From assembly GCA_002869385.1 (NCBI GenBank), contig PKTB01000026.1, positions 8,104-72,103 on the forward strand: a stretch of 64,000 nt of DNA, written 5' to 3'. This document shows, piece by piece, positions 35,301 through 64,000 of this stretch. The position numbers and the translations under genes were made by a program. Positions within the stretch are counted from its first letter, which is position 1; each line of letters opens with the position of its first letter. The notes under the pieces were generated by a model. That model worked only from the letters and a program-made list of their open reading frames with translations. It was not told where the DNA came from and searched no databases. Origin of the DNA: Marinilabiliales bacterium (GTDB lineage: Bacteria; Bacteroidota; Bacteroidia; Bacteroidales; ML635J-15).

Positions 35301-35373
35301 CGGGGTGTGGCGCAGGTGGTAGCGCGCTACGTTCGGGACGTAGAGACCGGAAGTTCGAGTCTTCTCACCCCGA
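35301..35373 (+). tRNA. tRNA-Pro (anticodon CGG)
   Basis: Acceptor CGGGGTG/CACCCCG-A; anticodon arm CTACG-TTCGGGA-CGTAG; T-loop TTCGAGT. Confidence 0.93.
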
Positions 35374-46999: not shown

Positions 47000-48058
47000 A
47001 TGCATTTGGAAGAGTTTGATAATTCCCCAGAAAACGAAGATATAGAACAATCTGAGCTCTTTGAGCATCATAGATTAGTTATTGAGGATGGTCAGAAATC
47101 AATACGACTCGATAAATACTTAGTGTCTAGGTTGCCTCAAACGAGTCGTAACAGGATACAAAATGCTGCTGATGCCGGTAATGTTCTAGTAAATCAAAAA
47201 CCTTCTAAGAGTAGTTATAAGGTTAAACCAGGTGATGTTGTAAGTATTGTTTTAAGTTATCCAAAGACAGAACATGAGCTTGTACCTGAGGATATTCCTT
47301 TAGATATTTTTTATGAGGATGATCAGTATGTTATTGTAAATAAGAAAGCAGGTATGGTGGTTCATCCTAGTCTGGGACATTTTGAAGGAACTCTAGTTAA
47401 CGCACTGGCATATAGGTTTCGTGATTTGCCTATGTTTAAGGGCAAAGAGGTGCGACCTGGGCTAGTACACAGGATAGATAAAGACACAACTGGCTTGCTT
47501 GTGATAGCTAAAACAGAACTAGCTCTCGAGAAATTAGCAAAACAGTTCTTTGATCATAGCTGTAGAAGATCGTATATTGCACTGGTTTGGGGGAATTTGC
47601 CCGAAGAAGAAGGAACTATTACCGGACATGTTGGGAGAAATCTGAAAAATCGTAAAGTAATGGATGTTTTTCCTGATGGGGAGTATGGTAAAGAAGCAAT
47701 AACTCACTATAGGGTACTTGAGCGTCTTGGATATGTTAATCTGATTGAATGTCGTTTGGAGACAGGCAGAACTCATCAGATACGTGTCCATATGAAACAT
47801 ATCGGTCATCCATTATTTAACGATGCTGATTATGGTGGGGATAAGATTTTAAAAGGGACTACATTTACAAAATATAAGCAGTTTGTAGAAAATTGTTTTA
47901 AGCTGCTTCCACGTCAGGCACTACATGCTAAATCACTTGGCTTTATACATCCATTAACAGGGGAGGACGTATATTATGATTCTGACTTGCCTGATGATAT
48001 GAAAGCTTGCATAGAAAAATGGCGTAATTATATTAGTCATAGAGATGAGTTTGAATAG
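47000..48058 (+). CDS. rluD: RluA-family pseudouridine synthase (RluD-like)
   Basis: S4 domain, NKKAGMVVHP, VHRIDKDTTG, ETGRTHQIRVH and RQALHA. Confidence 0.9.
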   Translation: MHLEEFDNSPENEDIEQSELFEHHRLVIEDGQKSIRLDKYLVSRLPQTSRNRIQNAADAGNVLVNQKPSKSSYKVKPGDVVSIVLSYPKTEHELVPEDIPLDIFYEDDQYVIVNKKAGMVVHPSLGHFEGTLVNALAYRFRDLPMFKGKEVRPGLVHRIDKDTTGLLVIAKTELALEKLAKQFFDHSCRRSYIALVWGNLPEEEGTITGHVGRNLKNRKVMDVFPDGEYGKEAITHYRVLERLGYVNLIECRLETGRTHQIRVHMKHIGHPLFNDADYGGDKILKGTTFTKYKQFVENCFKLLPRQALHAKSLGFIHPLTGEDVYYDSDLPDDMKACIEKWRNYISHRDEFE

Positions 48059-48145: not shown

Positions 48146-48232
48146 AAATTTAGCGATGGAACAGAAATGCGACTGCCTTACTTTTACCTATATACCCCGC
48201 ATCCGCTATGGCGGATAGGTGTTGTTGTGAAA
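48146..48232 (-). repeat. attC-like site, truncated (gene-proximal half only)
   Basis: gcgactgccttacttttacctatataccccgcat...ataggtgttgtt matches the family. Confidence 0.75.
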
Positions 48233-48239
48233 AGTTTTT

Positions 48240-49799
48240 TTATTTTTTAATAAATTTACTTCTTATTGATTTTGAATTGAAATAACTACCTGTAGTTTTT
48301 ATTTTCACTACATATAATCCCGGGGTTAAAGAGCTAATATCAATCTTCTGCATATTTGAAGCTTCTATAATTTTTTGTCCAGTTGAATTATAAACTTCAA
48401 TTTGCGTTTTGTTATTCTCAATGTTTTCAATGTAGATGTAATCATGAGCCGGATTTGGATAAACTATCTGTTTCATGCAAACTTGATTCTGAAGAATATC
48501 TGTGTTTGAACATAATACTGTATTCGAAGGTGTGTGATTACTAATTGTAAGAGAGGCACTGCTTTCAGTTGCGCCAGAGCCAGTAATTGTTAGATTTTTA
48601 ATTGTAGGAGTAATAATTTAAACATCTGTAATTACATCGTTTTGGTTGCATCCACTGTTTCCAACACCATCTAGTTTTCCAAAGTAAATATCAGAACCAT
48701 AATCGCCTGTAAAAACAATTACACCATCAAATGTTGTTTGAATATCATAAATATAGGCTGCCCCGCTAAGACCATATATCTTTGACCAGATAGTGTTACC
48801 TGTGCTGTTAATATTTATAATGTATGCTTCGTCACCACTGAAGCTATAAGTATATCCTCCTATAAAGTATCCACCGCTTCCGTTTTCCTTAATTGAATAT
48901 CCATAATCTGAAGCTGCCCCTCCGTAGGTTTTTGCCCATATAGGTGTGCCAAAACTATCTGTTTTTATCACAAGTATATCCATATTGGTATTGTAGCTCT
49001 GTGTTTCACCAACCAATATGTATCCATTGTCTGATGTTTGAATAACTGATCGTGCAGCATCATCTTCTATTATTTCACCATATGTTTTAAACCATTCAAC
49101 ATTTCCGTTTATATCTGTTTTTAGTAAAAACGCATCAAAATAGTACCCATCCTCTGAATCTGTTGCTCTTCCGGCAATAATATATCCGCCATCATTTGTT
49201 TCTTTTATATCAAATGCTTCATCGGTCGAATAATTTCCATAACCATACTTTTTTGACCATAATAAATTACCTGAGGAGTTTACTTTTATAACAAATGCCT
49301 CCCAATCACTAGAACATCCTACAACTACAAAATCATTGGTAGTCGTTTCAATTACAGAGTATGCCAAATCTTCCTTGTTGATGCTTAAATCTCCATATAT
49401 TTTAGTCCATATAGTATCGCCAACGCTATTTGTTCTTATTAGAAGAAAGTCTTCGGAATCATCTGGCCCAAAACTTTTTGTAATTCCTGCCAAAATATAT
49501 CCACCATCGCTAACTTGCTGTACGGAGAAAATCCTTTCCTGATCTGCACCACCATACATTTTAGCCCATTCAATAACACCTAAACTCGAAAATTTGATCA
49601 ATAATGCATCATATGTATAATTACCAGCACCAAAACTTGAAGTCCAACCGGCTATTACATAACCATTATCGGAGGTTTGTTTTACTGACTCTCCAAATTC
49701 AGTTTCATCACCACTAATTCTTTCCTGAAAAGTTATTTGACCGAAAACAGAAAAAACAATCATTACTTGTGCAATAAAAAGAAGGAAAACTTTATTCAT
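48240..49799 (-). CDS. T9SS type A CTD propeller protein (QTSDNGY repeats) with in-frame TAA at 48618-48620
   Basis: Repeated W.KTYG...QT.D.GYI units; YPNP CTD in the same frame. Confidence 0.8.
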
Positions 49800-49933
49800 A
49801 TTATTATATTTACTAATTATGTCTTGTCCTGAAATATGCTTACAGTTTAAACATATGATTAAGTTCTATATTTAAACACCATATCAGGGGTTTTATACAA
49901 AGATAAGTGTAATCTTTTATTATTTCATTTTTT

Positions 49934-50029
49934 GAAAGCCAAATTGCAAAATTTAGCAGTGGTGCAGAAATGAGACTAACAGAATTATCTGCATAAAACT
50001 ACGCATGGTATATAGGTGTTGTTATCAGC
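49934..50029 (-). repeat. attC-like site, truncated
   Basis: aaagccaaattgcaaaatttagc...gcatggtatataggtgttgttatc. Confidence 0.75.
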
Positions 50030-50057: not shown

Positions 50058-50375
50058 TTATTTGTTCTTTAAACTATTTATGGATTTTATGGTATTCATT
50101 ATTGTTAGATATGACAATCCAATATCATTAATAACTGTGCATGAAATATAGTATGCTTCTTTCCCCTCAAAAAGAAATTCATATGTTATCCTGTCCTCTA
50201 CATAGCTTTCAGTTTTTTTCGGTTTCCCAAGTACTGAAAAGATTTTTTCTGCTGACATATTTGGGTATAGTGGAATGTCTATATTCTTCAAAAAATTGAC
50301 TAATTTTTGATTTTCAAAATCATCTTCAATAAATTGAAATATTGTATCCCCAATGAAACCAATATTTTCATACAA
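50058..50375 (-). CDS. Hypothetical protein, probably a 5'-truncated cassette gene
   Basis: No ATG start; frame stays open into the 3' end of the upstream gene. Confidence 0.5.
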   Translation of the reverse strand: MYENIGFIGDTIFQFIEDDFENQKLVNFLKNIDIPLYPNMSAEKIFSVLGKPKKTESYVEDRITYEFLFEGKEAYYISCTVINDIGLSYLTIMNTIKSINSLKNK

Positions 50376-50400
50376 ATATATAGTCCCGAACGCTATTTTA

Positions 50401-52203
50401 TTAAATCTTCACAATTTTAGATAAATACACCTTGTTTTCTTTAATAGTTCTAATGAAATAGACTCCTGGCCTATATTCATCTCCCATAATTATTTTGTTC
50501 TCAAATTTATTACATTCTTTAATAAACACAACTTTACCTGTTTTGTCTATAACTTCAATTGTAAAATCATCTTTATCCTGAATACCTACTGAAAAATAAT
50601 TTTTAAATGGATTTGGATAAACCTGATTAAATTCTTGTGTAGGTTCAAAAATATTGGTTGAAGAGACAAGACTACTAATATATGAGTAAGTTGTGTCAAT
50701 CTCGGTTCCGTTAATGCTTAGAATAAATTCGACAACATCAATAGCATCCTCTGTTAAAACTGGAATATTGTAATTAATCTCAATGCTGTCATTTTCAAAA
50801 GGCAAAATTGAAGCAGTGTTTATTTGCTGATTACTAACCCAACCTAGTTCTGAACTAATATCGCATGTTAATACCTGACTATCTGTGCTGTTGTTGTTTA
50901 AATAAACGCTAACTGTACCATTGCTGTTCTGTGCCGCTGCAATAGCAAATGGTTGAATATGACCTGAAATATATGAATCGTCAGCTACATCAGTTGTAGG
51001 ATCTGGGTCGCAAACCTCACCTATACCTTCTGTTGGAGGAATAATGTTATCACTATACATATAAATTGCACCCAGAGAAAAGATCGCATCTGTAACATGT
51101 AAGCCTGATAAATCAATTGTTCCACCAGGAATTGTATATAATGTTAAATCGTTTTCGGATATAATTGAAGCAAATCCATTAAGATTTTTAATTACAATAT
51201 CTTCTGCAGTAACAGTTATATCAAAACCACTAATCATATTATCTGCATGATCTAAAATAACGCTATCCGCACTAAGTGTAACATCATTAGGTAAAATTTC
51301 TTTATAGCCACCATGGGAATAGCCTGATTCTATAGTACCAGTATTATAAATTTTTGTAGTTCCACTAATCGTGATTTTACCGCCAAAAGCAGTCTGTCCA
51401 CCGGCTCCTCCTCGGATAGTGCCAGAATTTTGAAGGTGTACAGCACTTAAAATAACACTCCCGCCATCCCATAAATCGGCATTTGGATTGTCTGTTACGT
51501 GACCTCCTAATATAGTACCAGTATTTCTAAATTCTTGATCTGCAATAATTGAAACATCAACCCCATGATTAGTTCCTCCAGTAATACCTCCTTCATTAAA
51601 TACATCAATTGCTTTTATATTTATCATATTATCTCCATGGGGTGTTTCTAATTGGTCATCGCACACTATAACTCCATCCTCACTATTATATAAAGAATTA
51701 ATTGAACCGATTAAAGATGAGATTTTAACAAACCCTTCGTTAGTAAAGCTCATACCTGTGTTTTCTTCAGGACTTTCATCTTGTGTTGCATCAAACTCTA
51801 AAACTGATTTTAATGCCCCATCATTTGGTTGAATCGTCCCATAATTAAACAGAACTGGATAACCTGATTGATTTTTATCAGCAACTGTTAATGTTCCATT
51901 CAAATTCATAGTGCCAACGTTTTCTATAGTATGGTCAACTATTCTGTGATTGCCACCATCTTGAAATGATAAGGTGCCTAGATTTGTAATATGTTCAAAA
52001 GTAATTGTGCCTCCTTCTGAAGACACTTCACATGTTGGTGAACCATAAGGGATCTCGACAACATCAGAAGCAGTTGGTGTTCCACTCGGATCCCAATTTG
52101 CAGGATTGTGATAGTTGTTGTCAGCTGAACCTGTCCATGTTTTCTGCCCAAAAGAAATAAAGGAAATTAGTAGCATGATGCTAATAAGGTATAACTTTTT
52201 CAT
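50401..52203 (-). CDS. T9SS type A CTD protein with Gly/Asn-rich beta-helix-like repeats
   Basis: MKKLYLI signal, KTWTG...NW motif, N.GTI repeats, YPNPF CTD. Confidence 0.8.
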   Translation of the reverse strand: MKKLYLISIMLLISFISFGQKTWTGSADNNYHNPANWDPSGTPTASDVVEIPYGSPTCEVSSEGGTITFEHITNLGTLSFQDGGNHRIVDHTIENVGTMNLNGTLTVADKNQSGYPVLFNYGTIQPNDGALKSVLEFDATQDESPEENTGMSFTNEGFVKISSLIGSINSLYNSEDGVIVCDDQLETPHGDNMINIKAIDVFNEGGITGGTNHGVDVSIIADQEFRNTGTILGGHVTDNPNADLWDGGSVILSAVHLQNSGTIRGGAGGQTAFGGKITISGTTKIYNTGTIESGYSHGGYKEILPNDVTLSADSVILDHADNMISGFDITVTAEDIVIKNLNGFASIISENDLTLYTIPGGTIDLSGLHVTDAIFSLGAIYMYSDNIIPPTEGIGEVCDPDPTTDVADDSYISGHIQPFAIAAAQNSNGTVSVYLNNNSTDSQVLTCDISSELGWVSNQQINTASILPFENDSIEINYNIPVLTEDAIDVVEFILSINGTEIDTTYSYISSLVSSTNIFEPTQEFNQVYPNPFKNYFSVGIQDKDDFTIEVIDKTGKVVFIKECNKFENKIIMGDEYRPGVYFIRTIKENKVYLSKIVKI

Positions 52204-52525
52204 AATATTGGTTTTTAGTGTTGACACAAATATGAGAAAAAATTCAATAAGAACCAAAAGTGGCGTAAACTGTACTAAATATTGTTTAAATGCTCTTTGG
52301 TAGGATGTAATCATTGTTTTGTAAAAGTGTTGCAATTAGAATGATAGTGCTTTGAAACAATGGTTTAAATAAGTAAAATTATAATTTATGTAAAGATTAT
52401 TTACTGGTTTAGTTGTTGGCTCAAAATCCTTATTTCTAGTTTTCACTGTAAGGTTTTGTAATTCCATCATTTTTATACATAATTTACTACATATTGTGTA
52501 GCCAGATTTTAGGACGGGTCAAAAT

Positions 52526-52656
52526 GGTTGCTAACGATCGCAGCTATGGGTTTTGACGCATTATTGTTTCTGATTGAAAACCAGAAGCTTCTATAATAAG
52601 CGTAAGGGTCTTATTTGTAATGCTTTGCGACATTGCCGATAGGTGCTGTTACCACC
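52526..52656 (-). repeat. attC-like site, short divergent variant (~130 bp)
   Basis: ggttgctaacgatcgcagctatg...gataggtgctgttaccacc. Confidence 0.75.
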
Positions 52657-52681: not shown

Positions 52682-54712
52682 TCAATTGTCAACTAGTACT
52701 AATTTACACATAGGATAATGTACGTTTTCTGATGATAGTTGAATGTAGTACAACCAGCTAGGTAAATTGTCAAGATGCAAGATTATCATTTGCCCTGAAA
52801 TATTATTCATTTGCTTTACTTGTTTACCATTGGAATTATAAACTCTCAGCATTGCATCATTCAAATTTTCATTAATAGTAATAGTTGTTCCTGAAGAAAA
52901 TGGATTTGGAGATACTAAGAGAGGTAATTTTGCTTCGTCAGGAATTGGTATGATATTGCCAGTTACACTATTATACTCGTAAGCCCCAATATCAACCATT
53001 GCATTAATGGGTACTGACTGTCCTGTAATATCTGTGTCAAGTCCAATGTGTGTTCCTGCGTCTATACATGGAGAGGATGAGTTTAAAGCAAACTCATCTA
53101 AGCTGGGGCTGACAAAAAGTGGATTAGTAATTAAAGAGTTACTATCCTGACCAGAAATATTCTGATAAGAATTGAAATCCGAAGATAAATAGTTATTACC
53201 GATCCAGTGAATTAGATTTGCTGAAGGATCAGCATGGTAAAAGCAGTTATAATCCATTTTAAAATCAATTCCAATATTTGCAATTTCAACGACATTATTA
53301 GAATATTCAGGATTGAATACGATATTATTTTTAACCGAACAATGATCGGAATTACCCGCCCACATTCCTCTGAATGATATACCAGCATACAGACAATTGT
53401 AAACAGTATTGTTATAAACTAATGTACTATCATTTTCCTGTTCAATCATAATACCAATTCCGATAAAGTCATAACAGAGGTTATAGCACACCTCGTTTGC
53501 GGTAGAAGTATATCCGTAGGTCCCATCATCATCATCTAAATGAATCCCAACCATTCCGTCAGAAACAATATTGTAATAGAACTTGCTATGACTAACCCCG
53601 AATGTATAAATGCCGGCAGAAAGCCATCCGCTATATGGACTGGAAAAATCATCAACAGCTTCTGAAATAGTATTGTTGGTGACAATTAAATAATCGCAGT
53701 TTTCCAATCCTATCCCGCAACGATCAGGAATATATACAGATGCTTTATAAATATTATTATCAGATACTTCAACTCCGGTGGAATATCTTACACCAATAGC
53801 ACTACCGCCTGTCATAATTAGATTATTATTACATATCCGACTCCCATAAAGTGTTGATATTGTTGATGGTCCTGCCGGAACAAAAATCCCAATATTCCAG
53901 ATATTATATGTCTCATTATTAATGATGGTAATTGTATCATTTGAATAAAGAAAATGAATGAATATCCCATTCCCATGAAAAATATCCGAACCTGATCCAC
54001 CAACATTCGAAATATTTGTGCTATCGATAATTAAGCCTGCACCTGGATTATATGCATATATCCCATCGTTAGTATAATATTTAAGTCTGAACTTTGAAAT
54101 GGTAATATGACTACAAACGTCTTCTATATGAATACCACAGTAATATTGAACAATCTCTATTCCATCAGCTAGATCTGCAGGATTGTCAGAAGGCGAATAA
54201 ATACTTACTTTATGTGAAACTGGATCATAGTAAAATTCCCATAGATTATCAAGACTGCTTAGAACACTTTCTTTCTTTGCTCTCAAAGGCAATGAATCAT
54301 TTGTATTATAAAAAAGCACTGATATTTCTTCATTAAAGGATATCACAGATTCCCATATATTATTTCCAGTATAAATCCAATAATTTGTTGAATCAGCTTC
54401 AGTACTACCTTTCAATGTAGGATAATCACCTGATCCATAAGAAGAGAATACGATAGGTTGACTCGAACTACCAGTATAATTGATAAATATATTACCTGTC
54501 CAGCTTTGGCCTCTGTGAAATAGGATACTGTCTCCCGGTTGAAAAACAACGTAATTCACTTTATCTATTGTTTCCCATGCAAGAGTCGGAGAAGTTCCAT
54601 CATAAGAATCACTTCCTGAGATTGCATCAACATAATAATTGGTTGAAAAACCAAGATTGCTTATTAAGCACATATTGATTAAAAAGATGATATTAAAAAC
54701 AGGTTTTTTCAT
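52682..54712 (-). CDS. Right-handed beta-helix repeat protein with T9SS CTD (lyase/hydrolase-like)
   Basis: TNYYVD...G.D..DGTSP, VYNNTV, SPCIDAG...DIGAYE and PNPF. Confidence 0.82.
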   Translation of the reverse strand: MKKPVFNIIFLINMCLISNLGFSTNYYVDAISGSDSYDGTSPTLAWETIDKVNYVVFQPGDSILFHRGQSWTGNIFINYTGSSSQPIVFSSYGSGDYPTLKGSTEADSTNYWIYTGNNIWESVISFNEEISVLFYNTNDSLPLRAKKESVLSSLDNLWEFYYDPVSHKVSIYSPSDNPADLADGIEIVQYYCGIHIEDVCSHITISKFRLKYYTNDGIYAYNPGAGLIIDSTNISNVGGSGSDIFHGNGIFIHFLYSNDTITIINNETYNIWNIGIFVPAGPSTISTLYGSRICNNNLIMTGGSAIGVRYSTGVEVSDNNIYKASVYIPDRCGIGLENCDYLIVTNNTISEAVDDFSSPYSGWLSAGIYTFGVSHSKFYYNIVSDGMVGIHLDDDDGTYGYTSTANEVCYNLCYDFIGIGIMIEQENDSTLVYNNTVYNCLYAGISFRGMWAGNSDHCSVKNNIVFNPEYSNNVVEIANIGIDFKMDYNCFYHADPSANLIHWIGNNYLSSDFNSYQNISGQDSNSLITNPLFVSPSLDEFALNSSSPCIDAGTHIGLDTDITGQSVPINAMVDIGAYEYNSVTGNIIPIPDEAKLPLLVSPNPFSSGTTITINENLNDAMLRVYNSNGKQVKQMNNISGQMIILHLDNLPSWLYYIQLSSENVHYPMCKLVLVDN

Positions 54713-54796
54713 GTAAAACTTTCTGTAAAAGAATTATTACTTACAAAGTAACAAAACTTAAATAGGTTTTTATTCAGATAGCTTGTTTTTTTTTTA

Positions 54797-54879
54797 TTAG
54801 CGGTGGTTCGGAAAAGCGACTTCCTTACTTTTACCTATATACCCCGCATCCGCCATGGCGGATAGATGTTGTTATCAAC
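54797..54879 (-). repeat. attC-like site, truncated
   Basis: gcggtggttcggaaaagcgac...gatagatgttgttatcaac. Confidence 0.75.
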
Positions 54880-54888
54880 TGCCGTTTT

Positions 54889-55188
54889 TTAGTCGTTTAA
54901 TCTATTTTCTATATCCATCATTTGGTGTAAAACTCTGATAATTTCAACAATGTTACTCTTCTTTTCAATTTTATAAAAGATAAGATGAGATTTGATTTTG
55001 GTTTTGTAATATCCTTTCCTGACTGAACTGCAATCTATCCCAGATTTTGGTTTTTTTGCGACATATTCTATTTCATCTAGAATTAAATTTAGATATCTGT
55101 CCGCTTGCTCAGCCGACCAGTTTTCAAATGTATAAAACCAAATATTTTCAAGATCTTGGCTTGCCAAGAGACTTATTTTGTATTTCAT
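54889..55188 (-). CDS. parE: Type II toxin, ParE family
   Basis: ASQDLENIW.YT..NWS.EQADRY, HLIFY and IIRVLHQMMD. Confidence 0.92.
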   Translation of the reverse strand: MKYKISLLASQDLENIWFYTFENWSAEQADRYLNLILDEIEYVAKKPKSGIDCSSVRKGYYKTKIKSHLIFYKIEKKSNIVEIIRVLHQMMDIENRLND

Positions 55189-55436
55189 TATGCTGGAAGG
55201 TGTTTTTCGTGAATGCTTTTAAGAAAAGTATCACGGTCAAAATCTTTTACAAAACCAGATTTCTCACCTTTCTTTAATTCTTTAATAAGTTCTGATTTCT
55301 TTGATTGCTCATATTCAAAAAGTCTAAGAGCTGCTCTAACAACTTCACTTGCGGATGAGAACTTACCAGACTTTATTTGCTGATTAATGAAATTATCAAA
55401 ATAGTCTCCGAGTAGTATTGATGTATTTTTAGCCAT
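55188..55436 (-). CDS. parD: Type II antitoxin, ParD (CC2985-like RHH) family
   Basis: MAKNTSILLG...SGKFSSASEVVRAALRL; overlaps toxin start; TATCTTTG promoter motif near 55455-55462. Confidence 0.92.
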   Translation of the reverse strand: MAKNTSILLGDYFDNFINQQIKSGKFSSASEVVRAALRLFEYEQSKKSELIKELKKGEKSGFVKDFDRDTFLKSIHEKHLPA

Positions 55437-55498
55437 AATTGTTTATGTTTTTTACAAAGATACCAATTATTGGTATTGTGCGCAAGTTTTTTTCGATT

Positions 55499-55724
55499 GT
55501 TGCTAACGGTCGCAGCTATGTACCGTGCGGGACAGTACTCCGATAGTTATCGGAGGAGACCACGGTCGAATAAGCTGCGAAGCCAAATTTACTATTTTGA
55601 TTTTAATTTATTCATGTGTAAAAGCCATCCGCCGCGGCGGATGGGTGGTGGTTCGGAAGTGCGACTACCTTTATTTTACCTATATATCCCGCATCCGCCA
55701 TGGCGGATAGGTGTTGTTAGGTGC
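55499..55724 (-). repeat. attC-like site with palindromic insertions
   Basis: gttgctaacggtcgcagctatg...ataggtgttgttaggtgc. Confidence 0.85.
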
Positions 55725-55762
55725 TGTTTTTTTTTTAGTGCTATCCTACGTGTAAAAGAAAT

Positions 55763-56458
55763 TTAAAAAAGTCTGATTCCTAAAATAATTGCAGCAGCAT
55801 AAAATATACAGAATACTAACGCGACTTTAGCAAGAGTATGTCCGCTATATTTTTCAGGATAATATTTAATATCAGCTAATACAGCATATGCAAAAATAAA
55901 TCCTAAAAGTATAGATAACAAACTTATAGTAACACAAATGGCCAATGCACCTGTAGTCGGGATAAAAGCAGGTACAAGCCATATACCATATCCTGCTGTT
56001 GTGAAAATTATTGCAATGATAGCTGCAATATGAATTTTTGTGTCTTTTGAAGTTGATGCCTTTGTATTGATAGTCTCTTTTTTAGATTTTGAAACTATGT
56101 ATGCATCTTCTTGATATTGTGTATTTGAATAGTTGAATTTATTATTTATTGCAGTTTCTTGAAAATAATTTACGTTATTATCATTGGATGCATAAGTAGG
56201 TTCAAGTTCTGAAATAGTTTCATCTTGATTAAAATCTTTGATTTTATCAATATTATTATTTTTGGCTTTCTTGTCGTGAGAAGTAGTCTCTTTCAATTCA
56301 ATTGACTTATCCTCTGGATTATCATTTGATTTTCTATTTACGTTATGCCAATCAACGTAATAACCAGGTTGATATGAACGTTTTTCAATCGAACAAGAAT
56401 TTAATCCAACTATTAGAATAAGGATTAACAAAAGGAAAAAGGATGTCTGTTTTTGCAT
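55763..56458 (-). CDS. Lipoprotein paralog 1 (EKRSYQPGYY family, C-terminal TM helices)
   Basis: LNSC lipobox; three hydrophobic C-terminal segments. Confidence 0.8.
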   Translation of the reverse strand: MQKQTSFFLLLILILIVGLNSCSIEKRSYQPGYYVDWHNVNRKSNDNPEDKSIELKETTSHDKKAKNNNIDKIKDFNQDETISELEPTYASNDNNVNYFQETAINNKFNYSNTQYQEDAYIVSKSKKETINTKASTSKDTKIHIAAIIAIIFTTAGYGIWLVPAFIPTTGALAICVTISLLSILLGFIFAYAVLADIKYYPEKYSGHTLAKVALVFCIFYAAAIILGIRLF

Positions 56459-56479
56459 GTTGATTATGTTTGTGAAATA

Positions 56480-56705
56480 GTGGCTAACGGTCGCAGCTAT
56501 GTACCGTGCGGGACAGTACTCCGATAGTTATCTGAGGAGACCACGGTCGAATAAGCTGCGAAGCCAAATTTTCTATTTTGTTTTTAATTTATTCATTCGT
56601 AAAAGCCATCCGCCGCGGCGGATGGGCGATGGTTCGGAAGTGCGACTGCCTTTATTTTACCTATATACCCTGCATCCGCCATGGCGGATAGGTGTTGTTA
56701 TGCCT
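56480..56705 (-). repeat. attC-like site with palindromic insertions
   Basis: Nearly identical to 55499-55724. Confidence 0.85.
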
Positions 56706-56718
56706 ACGTTTTTTTCTA

Positions 56719-57429
56719 TTAAAATGCATACATAATCAACAGCATTAGTATAGTTAGACCTGTTATTATCATGTAGGCTATTGCTATAAATATTAGAGTC
56801 CCACTGATAATCCTGCCAGCTTTTGCAAGACGTCTACCAACAACTAAACCTTCTTTGTCTAACATTTTAATAGCATTGTTTGAAAATATCAAACCTCCAA
56901 TTGCAAGGCATAAGCTGAGTATTAGAAGCGATATTTGTAGTGCTGGAAATGAATATAGAAGAACTGTAAAAATGGGGGTAATTAATGCAGAAAGGCTTAG
57001 AGTGAAGCCAATTTTTGCCTTCTGGTTTCCAGATAAAACCTTGTTATTAGGACTCTGAATATCTTTTTTTAGTTCAAATGTGTTGTTTTTTATTTTGCAA
57101 AAACTCTCTGTAGATTTTGAATTTACTATATTAATATTTTCGTAGTTGTCGTCATTTGAGGCATAGACAGTTTCATATTCTTGTATTGCCTCTGGTTGAT
57201 CAAAATCTTCGATTTTATCAACATTATTTGCCTCGGTTGTCTTTTCTTGAAATGCTGTTTCTTTTTGTTCAACTGACTTATCTTCCGGATTAGTATTTGA
57301 TTTTCTATTTACGTTATGCCAATCAACGTAATACCCAGGTTGATATGAACGTTTTTCAATTGTACAGGAATTTAATCCAACTATTAGTATTAGGATTACA
57401 AAAAGAAAAAAGTATGATTGTTTTTTCAT
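56719..57429 (-). CDS. Lipoprotein paralog 2
   Basis: Same N-terminus; DUF4190-like G..LAKAG.I C-terminus. Confidence 0.8.
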   Translation of the reverse strand: MKKQSYFFLFVILILIVGLNSCTIEKRSYQPGYYVDWHNVNRKSNTNPEDKSVEQKETAFQEKTTEANNVDKIEDFDQPEAIQEYETVYASNDDNYENINIVNSKSTESFCKIKNNTFELKKDIQSPNNKVLSGNQKAKIGFTLSLSALITPIFTVLLYSFPALQISLLILSLCLAIGGLIFSNNAIKMLDKEGLVVGRRLAKAGRIISGTLIFIAIAYMIITGLTILMLLIMYAF

Positions 57430-57451
57430 GATGTGTCTGTCTGTTTATATG

Positions 57452-57664
57452 TTTGCTAACGGTCGCAGCTATGTGGAGTGCGAAATGGGAGTGGAGAATC
57501 CACTATCGGATGAGCTGTGAGCCGAATTTTGTTATTTTGATTTTAAATTATTTTACATAAAAGCCATCCGCCGCGGCGGATTGGCGGTGGAACGGAAATG
57601 TGACTCCCAGAATTACCGGCATAAAACTCCGCATCCGCCATGGCGGATAGGTGTTGTTAGCAAC
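57452..57664 (-). repeat. attC-like site with palindromic insertions
   Basis: tttgctaacggtcgcagctatg...gttgttagcaac. Confidence 0.85.
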
Positions 57665-57696
57665 CATTTTTTATAAGTTAAATTTAAGGATAAATA

Positions 57697-58398
57697 TCAA
57701 AATATTAATGAAAAGTAGTAGCCCCAGAAAAACATAACAATTATTATATTCGCAATAATAAGCCATATTCCTCTATATTCTTCTGGTTTCATTAGTATAA
57801 AATATAATGCAATAAGTGAAAAAAAACCTCCGGCATTAACAAAGATCGTACTGTATAACATACAGAATATGAAAAATCCTAAACTTGGAATAAAATCTAG
57901 TATAATTAATAGTCCTAAACCCAATCCAATTATGCATAAAATTAAATCTAGAATTGCTGCCCAATGTACTTTTCTGTGTGTGTTTATTGTGTCTGACGAT
58001 TTTGTTGTTTTCTCTTTTATTAAAGATTCATAACTTTCTAATTCCTCTTTTCTTATATTGGAAGAAACTGTCTTTTTTTGATTAGTGAATTTTATTATTT
58101 CAACATTATTCAAAGATTCATCAGAAGAAGAAAAAACTGGCTCAATTCCATGAATAACTTCCGGTTGATTAAAATCTTTGATTTTAACAACATTATTTTC
58201 TTTGACTTCCTTTTCGTGAAATGCTGTTACTTTTTGTTCAACTGACTTATCTTCCGGATTAGTATTTGATTTTCTATTTAAGTTATGCCAATCAACGTAA
58301 TAGCCAGGTTGATATGAACGTTTTTCAATAGTACAAGAATTTAATCCAACTATTAGTATTAGGATTACAAAAAGAAAAAAGTATGATTGTTTTTTCAT
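57697..58398 (-). CDS. Lipoprotein paralog 3
   Basis: Same N-terminus; PEEYRG motif between TM helices. Confidence 0.8.
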   Translation of the reverse strand: MKKQSYFFLFVILILIVGLNSCTIEKRSYQPGYYVDWHNLNRKSNTNPEDKSVEQKVTAFHEKEVKENNVVKIKDFNQPEVIHGIEPVFSSSDESLNNVEIIKFTNQKKTVSSNIRKEELESYESLIKEKTTKSSDTINTHRKVHWAAILDLILCIIGLGLGLLIILDFIPSLGFFIFCMLYSTIFVNAGGFFSLIALYFILMKPEEYRGIWLIIANIIIVMFFWGYYFSLIF

Positions 58399-58420
58399 GA
58401 TGTGTCTGTCTGTTTATATG

Positions 58421-58623
58421 TTTGCTAACGGTTGCAGCTATGTACTGTGCGGAAAAGGAATCGCGAATCCGTTATCTTACACGCTATGAGCCGAATTTTG
58501 TTATTTTGATTTTAAATTATTTTTCATAAAAGCCAAATTACAAAATTTGGCGGTGGAACGGAAATGCGACTCCCAGAATTACCCGCATAAAACTCCGCAT
58601 GGTATATAGCTGTTGTTATCGCC
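58421..58623 (-). repeat. attC-like site
   Basis: tttgctaacggttgcagctatg...tatagctgttgttatcgcc. Confidence 0.85.
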
Positions 58624-58654
58624 TGTTATTTATTTCAGAAATCTTTTTGTTATT

Positions 58655-59329
58655 TTAAATGTCAGATTTTTTAATTAAACGTTCATTATAGTATTTATAT
58701 TTACGAAGAAACTTTGGTGTAGTTTTCTTACGTTTATATTTATATGCTTTTAGCTTAATTTCATAACTTGCTATTGATGCTTCACCATTGATAAGATTAA
58801 TTTTGTAAATAGAATTGTCAGAAATTACATATAGACTATCATCAATTAGATTTAAATATTTTGAGTCTTTTATATTTAATACTGGATTTTGGTACATCGT
58901 CTTTGTAGAATAAGTGCAAAAATCAAAATCAAGAGAAATTTTGTTTTTTAGTTTGCCATTTCGAAATACATTTAATTCAGAAAATGACACAGAAACTACT
59001 GTTCCATCATCCAATTTCTTATTGTAACCATAGCTAATTAATTGAACAACCGTTTCTCCTGTATCTGAAATGATATAGTCAGACCAATTTTCATAGGTTA
59101 GTTTGAAAAAATATAACGGTTCCTTTTCTCCTTTTCTAGTAACAACAGCAATTGCCGAAGGGGTTGGCTCCAAATCATACCAATTTTTTGATTCTTCTGG
59201 AATTACTGTTAGAGAATAGTTTTTATTCAGTTACCAACATTTGAAAACCTTTGATTCTAAATATATTGGTTCGCTTGCTAATAAATAGCTTGATATTAAT
59301 ATGAATGCTGTTAATAATAGTGTTCTCAT
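58655..59329 (-). CDS. Hypothetical secreted protein with in-frame TAA at 59231-59233
   Basis: In-frame signal peptide MRTLLLTAFILISSYLLA upstream of the listed ORF. Confidence 0.65.
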
Positions 59330-59344
59330 ATTGTGTGTTTAATT

Positions 59345-59540
59345 GGCGCTAACGGTCAAAGCTATGTGTAGTGCGACAAGGAATAGATTTGTCCTGTCAA
59401 GTTCGCACTTAGCCAAAGCTTTTTATTTTGTTTTAGTTTTTCTGTTTAAAGCCAAATTGAAAGATTTGGCGATAGATAGGATAGGAGACAAATGAAATTT
59501 TCCCTCCAAAAGAGCATTACATATAGGTGTTGTTACCGCC
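59345..59540 (-). repeat. attC-like site, divergent interior
   Basis: ggcgctaacggtcaaagctatg...tataggtgttgttaccgcc. Confidence 0.85.
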
Positions 59541-59562
59541 TGGTTGTTGTCGATACCCTCTA

Positions 59563-61167
59563 TTATGGTTGAAATATCAATTTTTCGACTTTGACTAGTT
59601 TTCTGTCGACAAATAAATTACAAATATAAGTTCCGGGTTTCCAACCTTTTGTTGGAATAGTAGTTGTTTCACTTGTAACAGGAATAATATCCTTTAAATG
59701 CCCGTTTACACCTGCTATCTTTATTTCTACATTTTGGTAATTGGGTAGTATCGTTTTAACAGTAAACCCATTACTGCTTGGGTTAGGGAATACTTGCATC
59801 TCTATCTGTTCAAACTCTGGTATATCATTACAAAGCTCAATATAAATTGTTTTCTCAGCAGATTTTATACAGCCATCTTGCGAAACTGTGACTTGTACAT
59901 TGTATTCGCCAACCTCTGTGTAAGTATGTACTGGGTCTTTTACATTATCTGCTCCTGAGTCTGCAAAATCCCACTCCCATGTATCTGCATAAGGGTTATT
60001 ATTATATAAATTCACATCAACTTCACCACCCTCAAGATAAAAAGTATCTGCGTAAGTGTTAATGCGTGGTTTTAGGTAATCACAACCATTGTCTGGCATG
60101 TAAAGTTTTACCATTCCTTTTGAGCGTATTCTTTCTCCATTGGGGACACTATCCCATGTTTGAAAGCCACCGCCAATATACAATGTATCACGAAATATTT
60201 CAAGTGCAAAGATATTATCCGAAAAAGCTCCACCAATACTATCCCAACTCTCACCGTTCCATTTAGTAATAAACGTACGATATTCATCTTCCTCTGTATA
60301 ATACATACCTGTACCTGTATAAAGTTCTCCTCTGTAGATCTCCAGTGCTTGATGCCATGCTGTTGTCCCATTATAATCTCCTAGAGCATTCCAGTTAAAA
60401 CCATCCCACATTGCAACTGCATGTGAAGTTTCACCACCAACTGCTGAAAACTGTCCTCCAACAAACATAAAGCTGTTTATTGTATCTGTATCCAAAGCAA
60501 AAACAAAACCATTGGGTTCTACCTCAAAATCCTCCCATTCTGTCCCACCAAGATATTTACGTAAGCCAAAGTAACCGCCAACATATAGCTCATTATTAAA
60601 AACCGTTATTGATGAAACCCATGTTCCCATATAGCCTATATTTAGCCAATTTACACCATCATAAGCAGCAATTTTATAAAAAACCTCGTCACCAATTTGT
60701 GTAAACCTACCACCTACAATCAGCATATCATTATAGATACAAAAGTCCTCAACATATGTACTGAAACCACCTATCGATGTTCCTTGCCAATTCGTACCAT
60801 TCCATATTGCACCCCCTCTGGTATCAGGGTTTTCACTAACACTCGGGAATGACCCTCCAATATACAAAGTATCCCTATAGACAATTGCTTTATAAATAAA
60901 ACCGTTATCAATCCCTTCCTCATAAATAGATGGTTCTGTCTTATCCCAACTTGCAATTCCATGTGCTTCAAGTGTATTTATTTTACTAAATGAACCTGCA
61001 AGATAAATAACCGAATCTCCAGAATTATAGAAATCGTATATGCTAATTGCTCCACCTAAACTATTATAAAGACTATCTATACCAACAAAATTATCATCCC
61101 ATGTTTGAGTTGATGCTTCTAGAGTAAATCCAGAAATCAGAATTATTAATATGATATATTTCTTCAT
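59563..61167 (-). CDS. T9SS type A CTD protein: beta-propeller (W[DN]G..W repeats) plus PKD domain
   Basis: LY.GG.F / W[DN]G..W repeats, WEWDF...PVHTY...GEY and FPNP. Confidence 0.82.
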   Translation of the reverse strand: MKKYIILIILISGFTLEASTQTWDDNFVGIDSLYNSLGGAISIYDFYNSGDSVIYLAGSFSKINTLEAHGIASWDKTEPSIYEEGIDNGFIYKAIVYRDTLYIGGSFPSVSENPDTRGGAIWNGTNWQGTSIGGFSTYVEDFCIYNDMLIVGGRFTQIGDEVFYKIAAYDGVNWLNIGYMGTWVSSITVFNNELYVGGYFGLRKYLGGTEWEDFEVEPNGFVFALDTDTINSFMFVGGQFSAVGGETSHAVAMWDGFNWNALGDYNGTTAWHQALEIYRGELYTGTGMYYTEEDEYRTFITKWNGESWDSIGGAFSDNIFALEIFRDTLYIGGGFQTWDSVPNGERIRSKGMVKLYMPDNGCDYLKPRINTYADTFYLEGGEVDVNLYNNNPYADTWEWDFADSGADNVKDPVHTYTEVGEYNVQVTVSQDGCIKSAEKTIYIELCNDIPEFEQIEMQVFPNPSSNGFTVKTILPNYQNVEIKIAGVNGHLKDIIPVTSETTTIPTKGWKPGTYICNLFVDRKLVKVEKLIFQP

Positions 61168-61218
61168 TTAGAGTGTAATATACAAAAATTCATTTAGACT
61201 GCAATGGTTTTTCAACTT

Positions 61219-61420
61219 GGCGGTAACGGTCGCAGCTATGTACCGTGCGGGACAGTAGTCCCGAAACCACGGTCAAATTAGCTGCGAAGCCAAATTTACT
61301 ATTTTGATTTTAATTTAATCATTCGTAAAAGCCAAATTGTGAATTTGGCGGTGGTTCGGAAACGCGACTGCCTTTATTTTACCTATATACCCCGCATGGT
61401 ATATAGGTGTTGTTAGCAAC
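61219..61420 (-). repeat. attC-like site
   Basis: ggcggtaacggtcgcagctatg...ggtgttgttagcaac. Confidence 0.88.
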
Positions 61421-61427
61421 CGTTTTT

Positions 61428-62105
61428 TTACCAATGATATGTCATTAGTAATATGAATAACAAGGATATTAACTGTAGTGCTAAACTTGCAATAGTAAGT
61501 CCTAAACCTTTATATTTTTCTGGATTTAACAGTATTATTATTAAAGAAGTTAATGAGAATATTACTCCCAAAATAGCTAGCGAGTATCAAACTAAAGTTA
61601 AGAAAAGATAGAGCATAAGTCCATCTAAAAATGAACCTATAATTGCTGACGTAGACAGAATACTTAAAATAAAACCAGCTTTTGTTGACCAATGCATTTC
61701 TTTTTCTCCTGTATTGCCAGATAATACTTTTGTGTCTTCTATTATTACTTCATGTTTTTGTGGGTTTCTAGTCAAGGTACTGTTTTGATCAGTAGTGTTT
61801 ACTACCTCAATATCATTGATGTTTTCGTTATTGGAAGCATAAACAGGTTCAATTTTTTGAATAGCTATAGGTTGAATAAAATCTTCGATTTTTTCAACAT
61901 TATTCTTCTTTATTTTATTTTCGTAAGAAGCTGTTTCTTGTTGTTCAACTGAATTATTTTCAGGATTAGCATCTGATTTTCTATTTACATTATGCCAATC
62001 AACGTAGTAACCCGGTTGATATGAACGTTTTTCAATCGTACAGGAATTTAGTCCAGCTATTAAAATTAGGATTAAAAAGAGAAAAATGTATGTCTGTTTT
62101 TGCAT
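61428..62105 (-). CDS. Lipoprotein paralog 4 with in-frame TGA at 61587-61589
   Basis: Read-through LV*YSLAILG...NPEKYKG...HW-stop restores the family C-terminus. Confidence 0.78.
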
Positions 62106-62125
62106 GTTGATTCTGTGTGTGAAAT

Positions 62126-62329
62126 GGTTGCTAACGGTCGCAGCTATGTACCGTGCGGGACAGGAGTCCCGAGACCACGGTCAAAGTTGCTGCGAAGCCA
62201 AATTTACTATTTTGATTTTAATTTATTCATTTGTAAAAGCCAAATTGTGAATTTGGCGGTGGAACGGAAATGTGACTGCCAGAATTACCCGCATAAAACC
62301 CCGCATGGTATATAGGTGTTGTTAGCGAC
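62126..62329 (-). repeat. attC-like site
   Basis: ggttgctaacggtcgcagctatg...ggtgttgttagcgac. Confidence 0.88.
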
Positions 62330-62339
62330 AGGTGTTTTG

Positions 62340-63068
62340 TTAGTCATGTCTGTTTCTTATTAATTTGATAGCTTCATTTTTGTATTCATCGTAAAAATTA
62401 CAGTTACATGTACTATCAAGATATTCAAACATTACTGAGTTATATTCGTTTTCGACTTCATACAGTAATTCATAATCATTAACCTCAGGAGAAGCATAAA
62501 TATATTTAAACCCAAATAGATTTTCTAGGTATTTTATTTCTGTATTATTTAAACCTCCATCTCCAGGAATTAAATTTAGAAAATATATATTACCGTTTTT
62601 TATGTCTTCTTTTGCTTTTTCTGCACTGTAACCTATTTTATTTCTCAAGGTTGTATTTACTTTTTTTTGCCATATGGAATCTGATAAACAAAAAATGAAA
62701 TATTTGTTTTGTACTAGGTCGATAGAAGTCAAGTTGAAGTCTTTTTTTATAAATTCATTGATTGAGATTTGAAAATCAAGATTATCAAAATCTACATCAT
62801 TAATAATGAATCTGCCAGTTGTATCAGTTTCAACACTTTGCACTAAAGTATTGTGGTGATAGACATGAATTTGTGCAATTAAGAACGTTGCTTCTTTGTC
62901 GTCAGAATATGAGTATACTAGTTTGTTTTTGACTTCCTTATCGTTGTGATATATTTTTCCAATTATTTTAGAATCACACAACATTACTTTACCAAAAAAA
63001 GTAAATGATTGTTGTCCAATACTAAATACAGCATGAAACAAAAAAATTATTATTAGAGTTCCTTTCAT
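62340..63068 (-). CDS. Hypothetical secreted protein
   Basis: Signal peptide; single gene between two repeats. Confidence 0.7.
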   Translation of the reverse strand: MKGTLIIIFLFHAVFSIGQQSFTFFGKVMLCDSKIIGKIYHNDKEVKNKLVYSYSDDKEATFLIAQIHVYHHNTLVQSVETDTTGRFIINDVDFDNLDFQISINEFIKKDFNLTSIDLVQNKYFIFCLSDSIWQKKVNTTLRNKIGYSAEKAKEDIKNGNIYFLNLIPGDGGLNNTEIKYLENLFGFKYIYASPEVNDYELLYEVENEYNSVMFEYLDSTCNCNFYDEYKNEAIKLIRNRHD

Positions 63069-63087
63069 AAAGTGGGGTTTTACACTT

Positions 63088-63287
63088 GACGCTAACGGTT
63101 GCAGCTATGTGGAGTGCGAAAAAGGAATAGCGATTCCTTCGTAAGAGTTCCTACTAAGCCAGATTTTTTTATTTTGTTTTTAAATTTTATCGTAAAAGCC
63201 AAATCAAAAAATTTGGCGGTGAACGAAAGCGTGACTCACGAACGGTTACAGCCGCTTTTCGCATTACATATAGGTGTTGTTAGCCAC
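63088..63287 (-). repeat. attC-like site
   Basis: gacgctaacggttgcagctatg...taggtgttgttagccac. Confidence 0.88.
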
Positions 63288-63293
63288 TGGCTT

Positions 63294-64000
63294 TTAGTAG
63301 ACATTTAATATGATATGACATAGAGTTTTTATTCTAATTTGATCATCATGTTTCGTTAAGTAATAGGTAAAACCAGAATTCTCCATTTCTTTCACACCAT
63401 AAGAACCTTTTACGAAACCCATTTCTTCTGTCATAATCAAGTTTAAGTATTCTTCATCAATCTTTTTACTTTTACAATGATTTATCATTATAATGTAACC
63501 ATACTTTTCAAAATCTGTTAAGTATTTTAGAATTTGTTTTGGAACGACATTTTTGTCCTTGTTCCACCAACCTTTGAATTCAATTATCTTAGTTCCAATA
63601 CTTTTGTCCTCAATTTTCAAGTCTATTCTGCCATTACCTTTAGGTGACTCTGAATTTACAGATTCATATTTACATGTTAAAAAGGTTTTGAACCAATCTC
63701 TGAATGATTCTTCACTTTTTTTCGGAGTATTCTTTATTATTCTAATACCCTCACATTTTACATCTTGGTTCTGGATTTCATGAACTCCTTTTAAAAGTAT
63801 TTCAACAAATGTTTCATTTTGTTTTTCTTCTATTGAGAATTGTTCTTTAAACTCAGGATATCTTTCAATTATTTGAAAAATAGATTTAAACATAACCCCA
63901 TCTGAATAGGCTGTTTTTTGTGGATTCTTCAGTATCCTTGATTTCGGATTATTTATTACTGTCTTTGATGCTAATATTCCTTGCCCTGTAAGATAGTCTA
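63294..64000 (-). CDS. Protein with C-terminal PD-(D/E)XK nuclease-like domain; 5' end beyond the window
   Basis: E..F...ESPKGNGRIDLKI...IIEFK...QILKYL; frame open to 64000. Confidence 0.65.
   Translation of the reverse strand, partial: DYLTGQGILASKTVINNPKSRILKNPQKTAYSDGVMFKSIFQIIERYPEFKEQFSIEEKQNETFVEILLKGVHEIQNQDVKCEGIRIIKNTPKKSEESFRDWFKTFLTCKYESVNSESPKGNGRIDLKIEDKSIGTKIIEFKGWWNKDKNVVPKQILKYLTDFEKYGYIIMINHCKSKKIDEEYLNLIMTEEMGFVKGSYGVKEMENSGFTYYLTKHDDQIRIKTLCHIILNVY

Follow-up and report, generated by a model that had tools for sequence, protein, structure and literature searches.

The stretch of DNA considered here, referred to below as the window, comprises 64,000 nucleotides of contig C8 of a Bacteroidales-like genome termed G000 (G000:C8:8104-72103); C8 ends 477 nt beyond the window. 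From ~48,150 to the end of the window, repeats of ~200 nt alternate with open reading frames (ORFs), every one of which lies on the minus strand. Altogether 12 repeats and 12-13 cassettes can be counted, each cassette consisting of an ORF and the site that follows it, in a single orientation, as in an integron array. The region 48.1-64.0 kb probably represents the distal stretch of an integron-type array of gene cassettes on the chromosome, one that continues to the end of the contig, and its core sites are complementary across each cassette rather than within each repeat. The top strand of the array is the minus strand of the window, the plus strand being the would-be bottom strand. Copies of the repeat were located by nhmmer with a hidden Markov model (HMM) built from the repeats of the window, loose regular-expression scans of the repeat ends being too permissive, and the attC vocabulary (R', R'', extrahelical bases, unpaired spacer, variable structure) is that of the defining part of PMC5027507. 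The elements of the array and the gene bordering it are as follows:

47000-48058: rluD gene (RluD-type pseudouridine synthase), beside which the array stops at a truncated repeat
48153..48232, minus strand: distal truncated attC-like repeat, end of the array, adjoining rluD; degenerate inverse core GTTGTGAAA at 48224
48240..49799, minus strand: cassette ORF split into a 393-aa ORF and a 78-aa sorting tail of the type IX secretion system (T9SS), the latter as an ORF of its own
49900..50029, minus strand: attC-like repeat with degenerate R' half; inverse core GTTATCAGC at 50021
50058..52335, minus strand: cassette with a 105-aa ORF and a 644-aa T9SS-sorted protein
52527..52656, minus strand: short attC (~130 nt) of a different sequence type and centre, with the same R/L box ends
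52682..54712, minus strand: cassette ORF for a 676-aa beta-helix protein with T9SS tail
54780..54879, minus strand: attC-like repeat without R' half; inverse core GTTATCAAC at 54871
54889..55436, minus strand: ParE toxin/ParD antitoxin cassette
55499..55724, minus strand: attC of 226 nt; R' arm 55499-55507, inverse core 55716-55724
55763..56458, minus strand: cassette ORF of 231 aa, member of a paralogue family
56480..56705, minus strand: attC
56719..57429, minus strand: cassette ORF of 236 aa, paralogue, whose own ends mismatch (0/5)
57452..57664, minus strand: attC
57697..58398, minus strand: cassette ORF of 233 aa, paralogue
58421..58623, minus strand: attC
58655..59173, minus strand: cassette ORF of 172 aa, no family
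59345..59540, minus strand: attC
59563..61167, minus strand: cassette ORF of 534 aa with PKD domain and T9SS tail
61219..61420, minus strand: attC
61510..62105, minus strand: cassette ORF of the paralogue family, present as two overlapping ORFs
62127..62329, minus strand: attC
62340..63068, minus strand: cassette ORF of 242 aa, no family
63088..63287, minus strand: attC
63294..64000, minus strand: 3' part of a 383-aa cassette ORF that starts 32 nt from the contig end

Complementarity of the core sites across cassettes had been proposed in an initial annotation of this DNA as the footprint of circular excision and integration, six pairs of cassette ends being quoted in its support. All six are found at the positions given for them, with matches of 9/9 (59532/61219), 10/10 (61412/62126), 9/10 (62321/63087), 8/9 (58615/59345), 11/12 (57656/58418) and 8/9 (54871/55499). 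Two poor pairs lying inside the range that it covered had been left out, namely 55716 GTTAGGTGC versus 56480 GTTAGCCAC, with 2/5 variable positions matching, and 56697 GTTATGCCT versus 57452 GTTAGCAAA, with 0/5. Both were included in the test set, which consists of all nine cassettes of the window having both ends; with GTTA numbered as core positions 1-4, the variable positions 5-9 or 5-12 were scored. At positions 5-9 the matches across the cassette amount to 31/45 vs 24/45 within the repeat, random re-pairing of the ends giving a mean of 23.6 (standard deviation 2.4, maximum 31), with 88 of 100,000 shuffles reaching 31; at positions 5-12 the corresponding values are 42/72 and 30/72, with a shuffled mean of 30.9 (standard deviation 3.6, maximum 42) and 20 of 100,000 shuffles reaching the observed score. 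Among all possible pairings the true one therefore ranks first or close to first. The claim that the two ends of one repeat match each other worse than do the two ends of a cassette thus holds for the complete set of nine, and a complementarity no better than that of random pairs, named beforehand as the outcome that would speak against the proposal, is not what the shuffles returned. Furthermore, because both ends of a cassette lie within ~10 nt of unique sequence, the across-cassette comparison is independent of the order in which the assembler placed the repeats. At its end beyond the window C8 breaks inside the next attC, at ACC GTTAGCCAC, and this contig-end core matches the inverse core at 63279 in 9/9 positions. 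The signal in the window is real but moderate; in related arrays it is near-perfect.

The in-silico circularisation suggested as a check was carried out by swapping the R' arm of a site for the arm of its own cassette, folding the product with DNA parameters and setting its stability against that of the integrated form and of the products of all other arms. The circular site is the more stable in 5 of the 7 sites of the window (one being equal and one less stable) and the circular arm ranks first in 4/7. In G031, a genome of the same order and a different family, 11 of 12 circular sites are more stable and one is equal, none being less stable, and the circular arm is the first of 13 possible arms in 12/12.

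The repeats themselves have the anatomy of attC sites. In the alignment of the eight complete repeats (minus strand), a variable tail plus GCTAAC is followed by AACACCTAT, by a long centre made up of a few alternative modules, by CATAGCTGCGACC and finally by GTTAGC plus a variable tail. Alignment and DNA folds together reveal an imperfect inverted repeat with R''/L''/L'/R' boxes, conserved AAC/GTT triplets and a variable centre, the core of the window reading GTTAGCR and not strictly GTTRRRY. As far as folding energy goes, the plus strand, i.e., the would-be bottom strand, is more stable than the minus strand in 9/9 sites, by 1.2-9.5 kcal/mol, and several of the minimum-energy folds close the R boxes and an L stem of ~20 bp containing G-T pairs on the plus strand. 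The L stem displays compensatory changes between site types (CCGGTAT/ATACCGG vs CGTGTAT/ATACACG in G031, as read by eye), and the spacers in the window, in G023 (a genome of the same genus as G000) and in L070 (a locus of a Flavobacteriales metagenome-assembled genome, MAG) are unequal, the one that follows the inverse core measuring 1-2 nt and the one that precedes the core 4-5 nt.

As to the point of exchange, core positions 4 and 5 vary between cassettes (GTTG..., GTTAC..., GTTAT...) and co-vary with the across-cassette partner, and the attI- or attC-specific sequence stops immediately before G; the exchange therefore takes place within GTT, like at the G|TT of integrons. The earlier attribution of the pattern to a G|TT crossover is borne out by this co-variation, which extends over core positions 4-9 between the start of a cassette and the inverse core at its 3' end, and the orientation of the ORFs, the hairpin anatomy, the presence of a ParDE cassette and the attI-like junction beside a tyrosine recombinase gene described below are in keeping with an array of the integron type. 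The footprint is a textbook property of integron cassettes and entails no new principle; what it shows here is that the units are mobile cassettes or once were.

The mechanism that would produce this footprint can be outlined as follows. Each unit comprises the last core bases (TTAGCnnnn), one or two ORFs and a recombination site of 120-215 nt. In this site, an imperfect hairpin, the inverse core nnnnGCTAAC and a spacer of 1-2 nt precede a long L stem, which leads into a branched centre of variable make-up; after the returning L stem come a 5 nt spacer and the G belonging to the next core. Cutting and rejoining within GTT by a tyrosine recombinase would leave an integrated cassette with the TTAGCnnnn half of its own core on the 5' side and with the complementary inverse core on the 3' side. 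Pairing of these two ends would be possible only in the circular form, and it would be because of this that the cores match across the cassette and not within the integrated repeat. The substrate is presumably the folded bottom strand and the enzyme presumably a 446-aa recombinase encoded on another contig of G000, C14; excision may still occur today.

Outside the window, the repeat HMM finds in G000 a further copy right at the terminus of C14, together with isolated ones on C1, C5 and C18, each of which sits just 3' of an ORF of the same orientation:

C1:134897-135064: ORF-plus-repeat unit outside the array
C5:99842-100028 and 101634-101766: ORF-plus-repeat units outside the array
C18:155091-155289: ORF-plus-repeat unit outside the array

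These solitary or paired units resemble clusters of attC sites lacking an integrase; on C18 the unit directly adjoins a 411-aa tyrosine recombinase gene, at the 3' end of the latter, on C5 the repeats have lost part of their sequence, and the search for the cassette starts of the units on the three contigs yielded only candidates with one mismatch.

On C14, GTTATAGGC occurs ~100 nt after the stop codon of the 446-aa recombinase gene with no repeat on its 5' side and is followed by the ORF of a T9SS protein and then by a repeat with an exactly complementary inverse core (9/9). To judge from the sequence, this arrangement reads as an attI-like junction followed by the first cassette, the sequence preceding the junction being only partly conserved among four loci of the same genus. 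The two contigs end without overlap and cassettes are therefore missing between them.

Recombinase homologues occur sporadically in relatives of G000, and the window HMM finds almost nothing in their loci because the sequences of the sites differ between genomes. In G031, 13 repeats of ~150 nt were found by similarity; at positions 4-9 they give 72/72 matches across cassettes vs 48/78 within repeats, a score reached by 0/100,000 shuffles, and the thirteenth pair reaches a junction located ~200 nt after the recombinase gene. Exact 9-nt across-cassette pairs are seen for 4 cassettes in G023, 3 in G025 and 3 in G038, two further relatives, and in L070, where 14 sites were collected from a single seed by nhmmer, i.e., by similarity alone, matching across the cassette is seen for 12 of 13 neighbouring sites. 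The array lies downstream of the recombinase gene and in the same orientation in G000, G023, G025, G031 and many other loci of the family; in G038 (L027, G038:C5 4359-10830) the recombinase gene and three cassettes diverge from a common intergenic region, which is the classical integron layout.

The 446-aa protein encoded on C14 is an Xer/IntI-like tyrosine recombinase. Its match to PF00589 (142 bits) places it in the tyrosine recombinase superfamily, and the columns R303, K328, H397/R396, H419 and Y428, conserved in 20 sequences, are those which we take to be the catalytic residues (R..K..H.R..H/W..Y). The best match is to TIGR02249 (integron integrase), which scores 219.6 bits against a cut-off of 265 bits and extends over two blocks, profile positions 180-237 being skipped; the XerA model (NF040815) gives 217.4 bits against a cut-off of 220. 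Compared with VchIntIA (2a3v), the protein has 20 residues in place of 62. IntI1 is 33% identical to the recombinase over residues 173-446, and in their alignment a 43-column gap, common to five family members, falls at the stretch of IntI1 that holds the IntI signature; the IntI-specific additional domain around patch III is absent from the recombinase. The archaeal XerA (4a8e) aligns with it end to end without a break (142.6 bits) and is the best full-length sequence match in PDB, the best structural match of the predicted model being 2a3v (Foldseek E 1.2e-16). No protein of G000 or of five other array-bearing genomes exceeds the TIGR02249 cut-off; the best in each genome is the array-adjacent recombinase, with positions 180-237 again skipped.

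The recombinase carries 170 additional N-terminal residues (G000:C14:213883-214392), predicted to form two beta-beta-alpha-beta-beta-alpha repeats (predicted local distance difference test score, pLDDT, ~85) with conserved RW...W..P motifs, and the short members of the family (347-357 aa) retain only the first of these repeats. The fold matches of this region, namely the N-terminus of T4 UvsW (Z 5.9), the damage-recognition domain of XPB (Z 5.0-5.4), SMARCAL1 HARP (Z 4.4, Foldseek E 0.12) and also the eIF1 fold, are weak and, with Foldseek E values of 0.06 or worse and Z <=5.9, below the meaningful level and nothing but a lead; a Pfam search of the N-terminus found no HARP domain. The recombinase gene is immediately preceded by a gene for a UpxY/NusG-like antiterminator (G000:C14:213115-213612; L001:214-711), which shares its direction and that of the array. 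The same pairing exists in G019, G023 and G005, all of the same genus, and no such gene was found by tblastn in the recombinase loci of other families.

Among the matches listed, more than 8,000 database proteins are related to the recombinase at E <=1e-30; those with a named source are mostly from Bacteroidales MAGs, and their database names are tyrosine-type recombinase, XerD and "integron integrase". Eighty loci were taken from contigs of one genome per species and span Bacteroidales, Flavobacteriales, Cytophagales, Sphingobacteriales, Chitinophagales, Ignavibacteriota and Chlorobiaceae, with a few MAGs labelled Clostridia or Bacillota. A detector of chains, in which an exact 9-nt across-cassette complement is combined with a gap of 45-260 nt having a 6-bp stem near both ends, returned chains of at least three cassettes in 12/80 loci and in 0/266 control windows of 15 kb each from G000, chains of exactly two being present in 20/266 controls (AT-rich words). 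Sequence extends for at least 3 kb beyond the gene in 34 loci; 15 of these have a chain of two or more, and 10 of the 15 chains begin within 400 nt of the 3' end of the gene. In many unrelated loci an attI-like junction is found 60-220 nt downstream of the recombinase gene. Of 79 loci, 36 end <1.5 kb after the gene, as fits assemblies that break at repeat arrays. On a complete plasmid of Chryseobacterium sp. SNU WT5 (L115, NZ_CP041688.1, 13929-24000) a member of the family is followed by small genes of the same direction (Crp/Fnr, RidA, metallophosphoesterase); a brief look shows matched core pairs ~119 nt apart, the run being interrupted by IS110 and by the reverse transcriptase gene of a group II intron.

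Aside from the ParE/ParD pair, the cassettes of the window encode several T9SS-sorted proteins (beta-helix, PKD), four paralogues of 170-236 aa and proteins without family, and six unannotated cassette proteins have no match in PADLOC or Pfam. The four paralogous cassette genes (55763-58398, 61510-62105) have in common a 5' part of ~300 nt with 76-84% identity and combine their 5' parts (family D1) with attC types (family D7) in different ways; both cassettes whose ends mismatch are among them. The two bad pairs could plausibly have arisen by homologous exchange between paralogues, and the cassette 56719..57429, because its two ends mismatch, is probably a chimera of paralogues. Broken-looking genes occur at 48240-49799, 58655-59330 and 61510-62105, with a separate T9SS tail or overlapping or shortened ORFs, the one at 48240..49799 being probably decayed, and three repeats, those ending at 48232, 50029 and 54879, are without a complete R' half. 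Together with the broken genes, the truncation of the three repeats closest to the distal end suggests that the array decays with distance from the integrase.

Elsewhere in the window, Rfam at gathering thresholds yields a single tRNA (35301-35373), a result that is uninformative on the repeats because Rfam holds no attC family, and a 1222-aa ORF at 40517-44185 contains two direct repeats spaced 240 nt (42150-42529) that are probably repeated protein domains.

Parts of the array are present as assembled contigs in four public metagenome runs, and pieces of single cassettes occur at ~99% identity in runs of two other studies. In public-run contigs (runs X1-X3; window 55214-55764, 60724-62376 and 62928-63478) the bins of the repeat are 10-20 times deeper than those of the unique cassette sequence; the sample therefore contains many more copies of the site than the 16 repeat-HMM matches of the assembled genome.

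Several observations weigh against a mobile cassette array served by this recombinase. The recombinase is without the IntI-specific insert, which is called necessary for integron recombination in the relevant passages of PMC8138268 and of the archaeal integron preprint; it is encoded on a separate contig, its join to C8 being unassembled. Two of the nine cassettes of the window have poorly matching ends (2/5 and 0/5) and three differ at position 5. In the public runs, which are accessible as assembled contigs only, neither an excised circle nor an empty site was seen; the joints of these contigs have sides of 20-46 nt inside repeats and are unreadable as circle or deletion junctions. Since the chain detector makes use of the across-cassette match itself, it shows linkage and is no independent proof, and a detector based on hairpins only, hence unbiased at core positions 4-9, gave over 34 runs 288/768 matches across, 314/972 within and 179/564 in the k/k+2 control. 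This hairpin-only detector was set aside, being dominated by false positives outside L070, the only locus that stood out (48/54 and 32/36 across vs 29/60 and 20/42 within).

It is barely credible that the repeats are immobile intergenic elements, such as terminators or sequences resembling repetitive extragenic palindromes (REP), whose ends match by chance or by tandem duplication. The paralogy of four cassettes, the truncation of several repeats and the decayed look of several genes would suit such elements, but the shuffle tests argue against chance, matched ends enclose unrelated cassette contents in at least five arrays from different families, and single ORF-plus-repeat units are found elsewhere in G000. 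If the cassettes are mobile, the alternatives concern the enzyme and the form of its substrate. A classical integron with a true, insert-bearing IntI encoded in unassembled sequence, the neighbouring Xer-like recombinase being a bystander, is distinctly improbable, in view of the absence of any TIGR02249 match at cut-off from the six array-bearing genomes and of the attI-like junctions that recur at a short distance from the Xer-like gene in so many unrelated loci; such a hidden integrase could nevertheless have escaped an assembly that is 93% complete and breaks inside the array, and the deeper repeat bins of the source-like metagenome imply that copies are missing from it.

Unlikely, too, is that the cassettes are moved not as folded single strands but by double-stranded recombination of the Xer/dif type between short core sites, an analogue of which is offered by the pdif modules of Acinetobacter plasmids. 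This would accord with the unbroken alignment of the recombinase with the archaeal XerA (142.6 bits), with its 217.4 bits on the XerA model and with the absence of the IntI insert that contacts the extrahelical bases. A double-stranded site, however, needs no pairing between core and inverse core, yet at least 10 different 6-nt core tails are each matched across the cassette; also the length of the imperfect hairpins, the compensatory changes of the L stem between site types and the greater stability of the plus strand in 9/9 sites speak for folded substrates. The reading that is retained is thus that of an integron-type array whose cassettes would be exchanged as folded bottom strands, and the interesting result is an integron-like system whose recombinase fails the IntI test yet repeatedly heads arrays with textbook core-site behavior.

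In the literature searched, which left aside the supplementary per-genome tables of CALINs (clusters of attC sites lacking an integrase), no description was found of Bacteroidota cassette arrays served by an insert-less IntI-like recombinase. According to the pertinent section of the IntegronFinder 2.0 paper (PMC9024848), Bacteroidetes earlier had only In0 elements and then one complete integron, that of Salinibacter ruber; in the parts of the reviews bearing on this point (PMC8618304; bioRxiv preprint on archaeal integrons) Bacteroidota are listed among the integron-bearing phyla. In the corresponding passages of PMC8138268 and of the same preprint IntIs are defined by the additional domain, and attC clusters without integrase are described as common in the relevant portion of PMC4889954. 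Tentatively, and with slightly more doubt than conviction, the arrays may be ascribed to a separate and widespread integron lineage, present in Bacteroidota, in Ignavibacteriota and Chlorobiaceae MAGs and on the Chryseobacterium plasmid, whose integrase would never have had, or would have lost, the IntI-specific domain and would possess instead one or two N-terminal beta-beta-alpha repeats weakly resembling structure-specific DNA-binding domains, while in one genus the UpxY/NusG-like antiterminator could carry transcription through the hairpin-rich array. Were this so, the lineage would escape those tools for which the IntI domain is the defining feature of an integron.

What could be the significance of such a system? 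At present the recognition of integrons relies on an integrase domain that is absent here, and Bacteroidota are reported to be almost devoid of complete integrons. If the family drives attC-type recombination, the IntI insert would be no universal requirement, a large overlooked reservoir of cassettes, including plasmid-borne arrays, would exist in environmental and host-associated Bacteroidota, and the Xer-like origin of integron integrases would become testable.

With the sedentary chromosomal integrons, e.g., the Vibrio arrays with their homogeneous attC sites, the array of G000 has in common its length and single orientation, the mostly single-ORF cassettes, a toxin-antitoxin cassette, the similarity of the repeats within the array, the AAC/GTT core triplets, the R/L boxes and variable centre, the complementary core halves across cassettes and an attI-like junction beside a tyrosine recombinase gene. 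It differs from them in that the recombinase is without the IntI-specific insert (219.6 bits vs 265 on TIGR02249), the sites measure 190-226 nt, some cassettes reach 2-2.6 kb and the host phylum is Bacteroidota. In the "reverse" integrons of the Treponema denticola type intI is transcribed in the direction of the cassettes, and the arrays of G000, G023, G025 and G031, located downstream of the recombinase gene in the same orientation, are alike in this respect; unlike the recombinase found here, the integrases of the reverse integrons carry the IntI insert, and the layout of G038, which belongs to the same recombinase family, is divergent.

The archaeal integrons, in which genome mining revealed an integron architecture outside Proteobacteria with attI immediately downstream of intI (Ghaly et al. 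2022, in the part describing the architecture), resemble the present arrays in both respects, an attI-like junction directly downstream of the recombinase gene being seen here also; the archaeal IntIs, however, are reported in that part to keep the IntI-specific domain that the family described here is without. Finally, the Xer recombinases (XerA, XerC/D) share with the latter a catalytic domain devoid of the insert, and XerA (4a8e) is its best full-length match by sequence in PDB; yet, whereas Xer acts on short double-stranded dif sites, the sites found here are long hairpins ordered into cassette arrays, and the recombinase of G000 has an extra pair of N-terminal domains.

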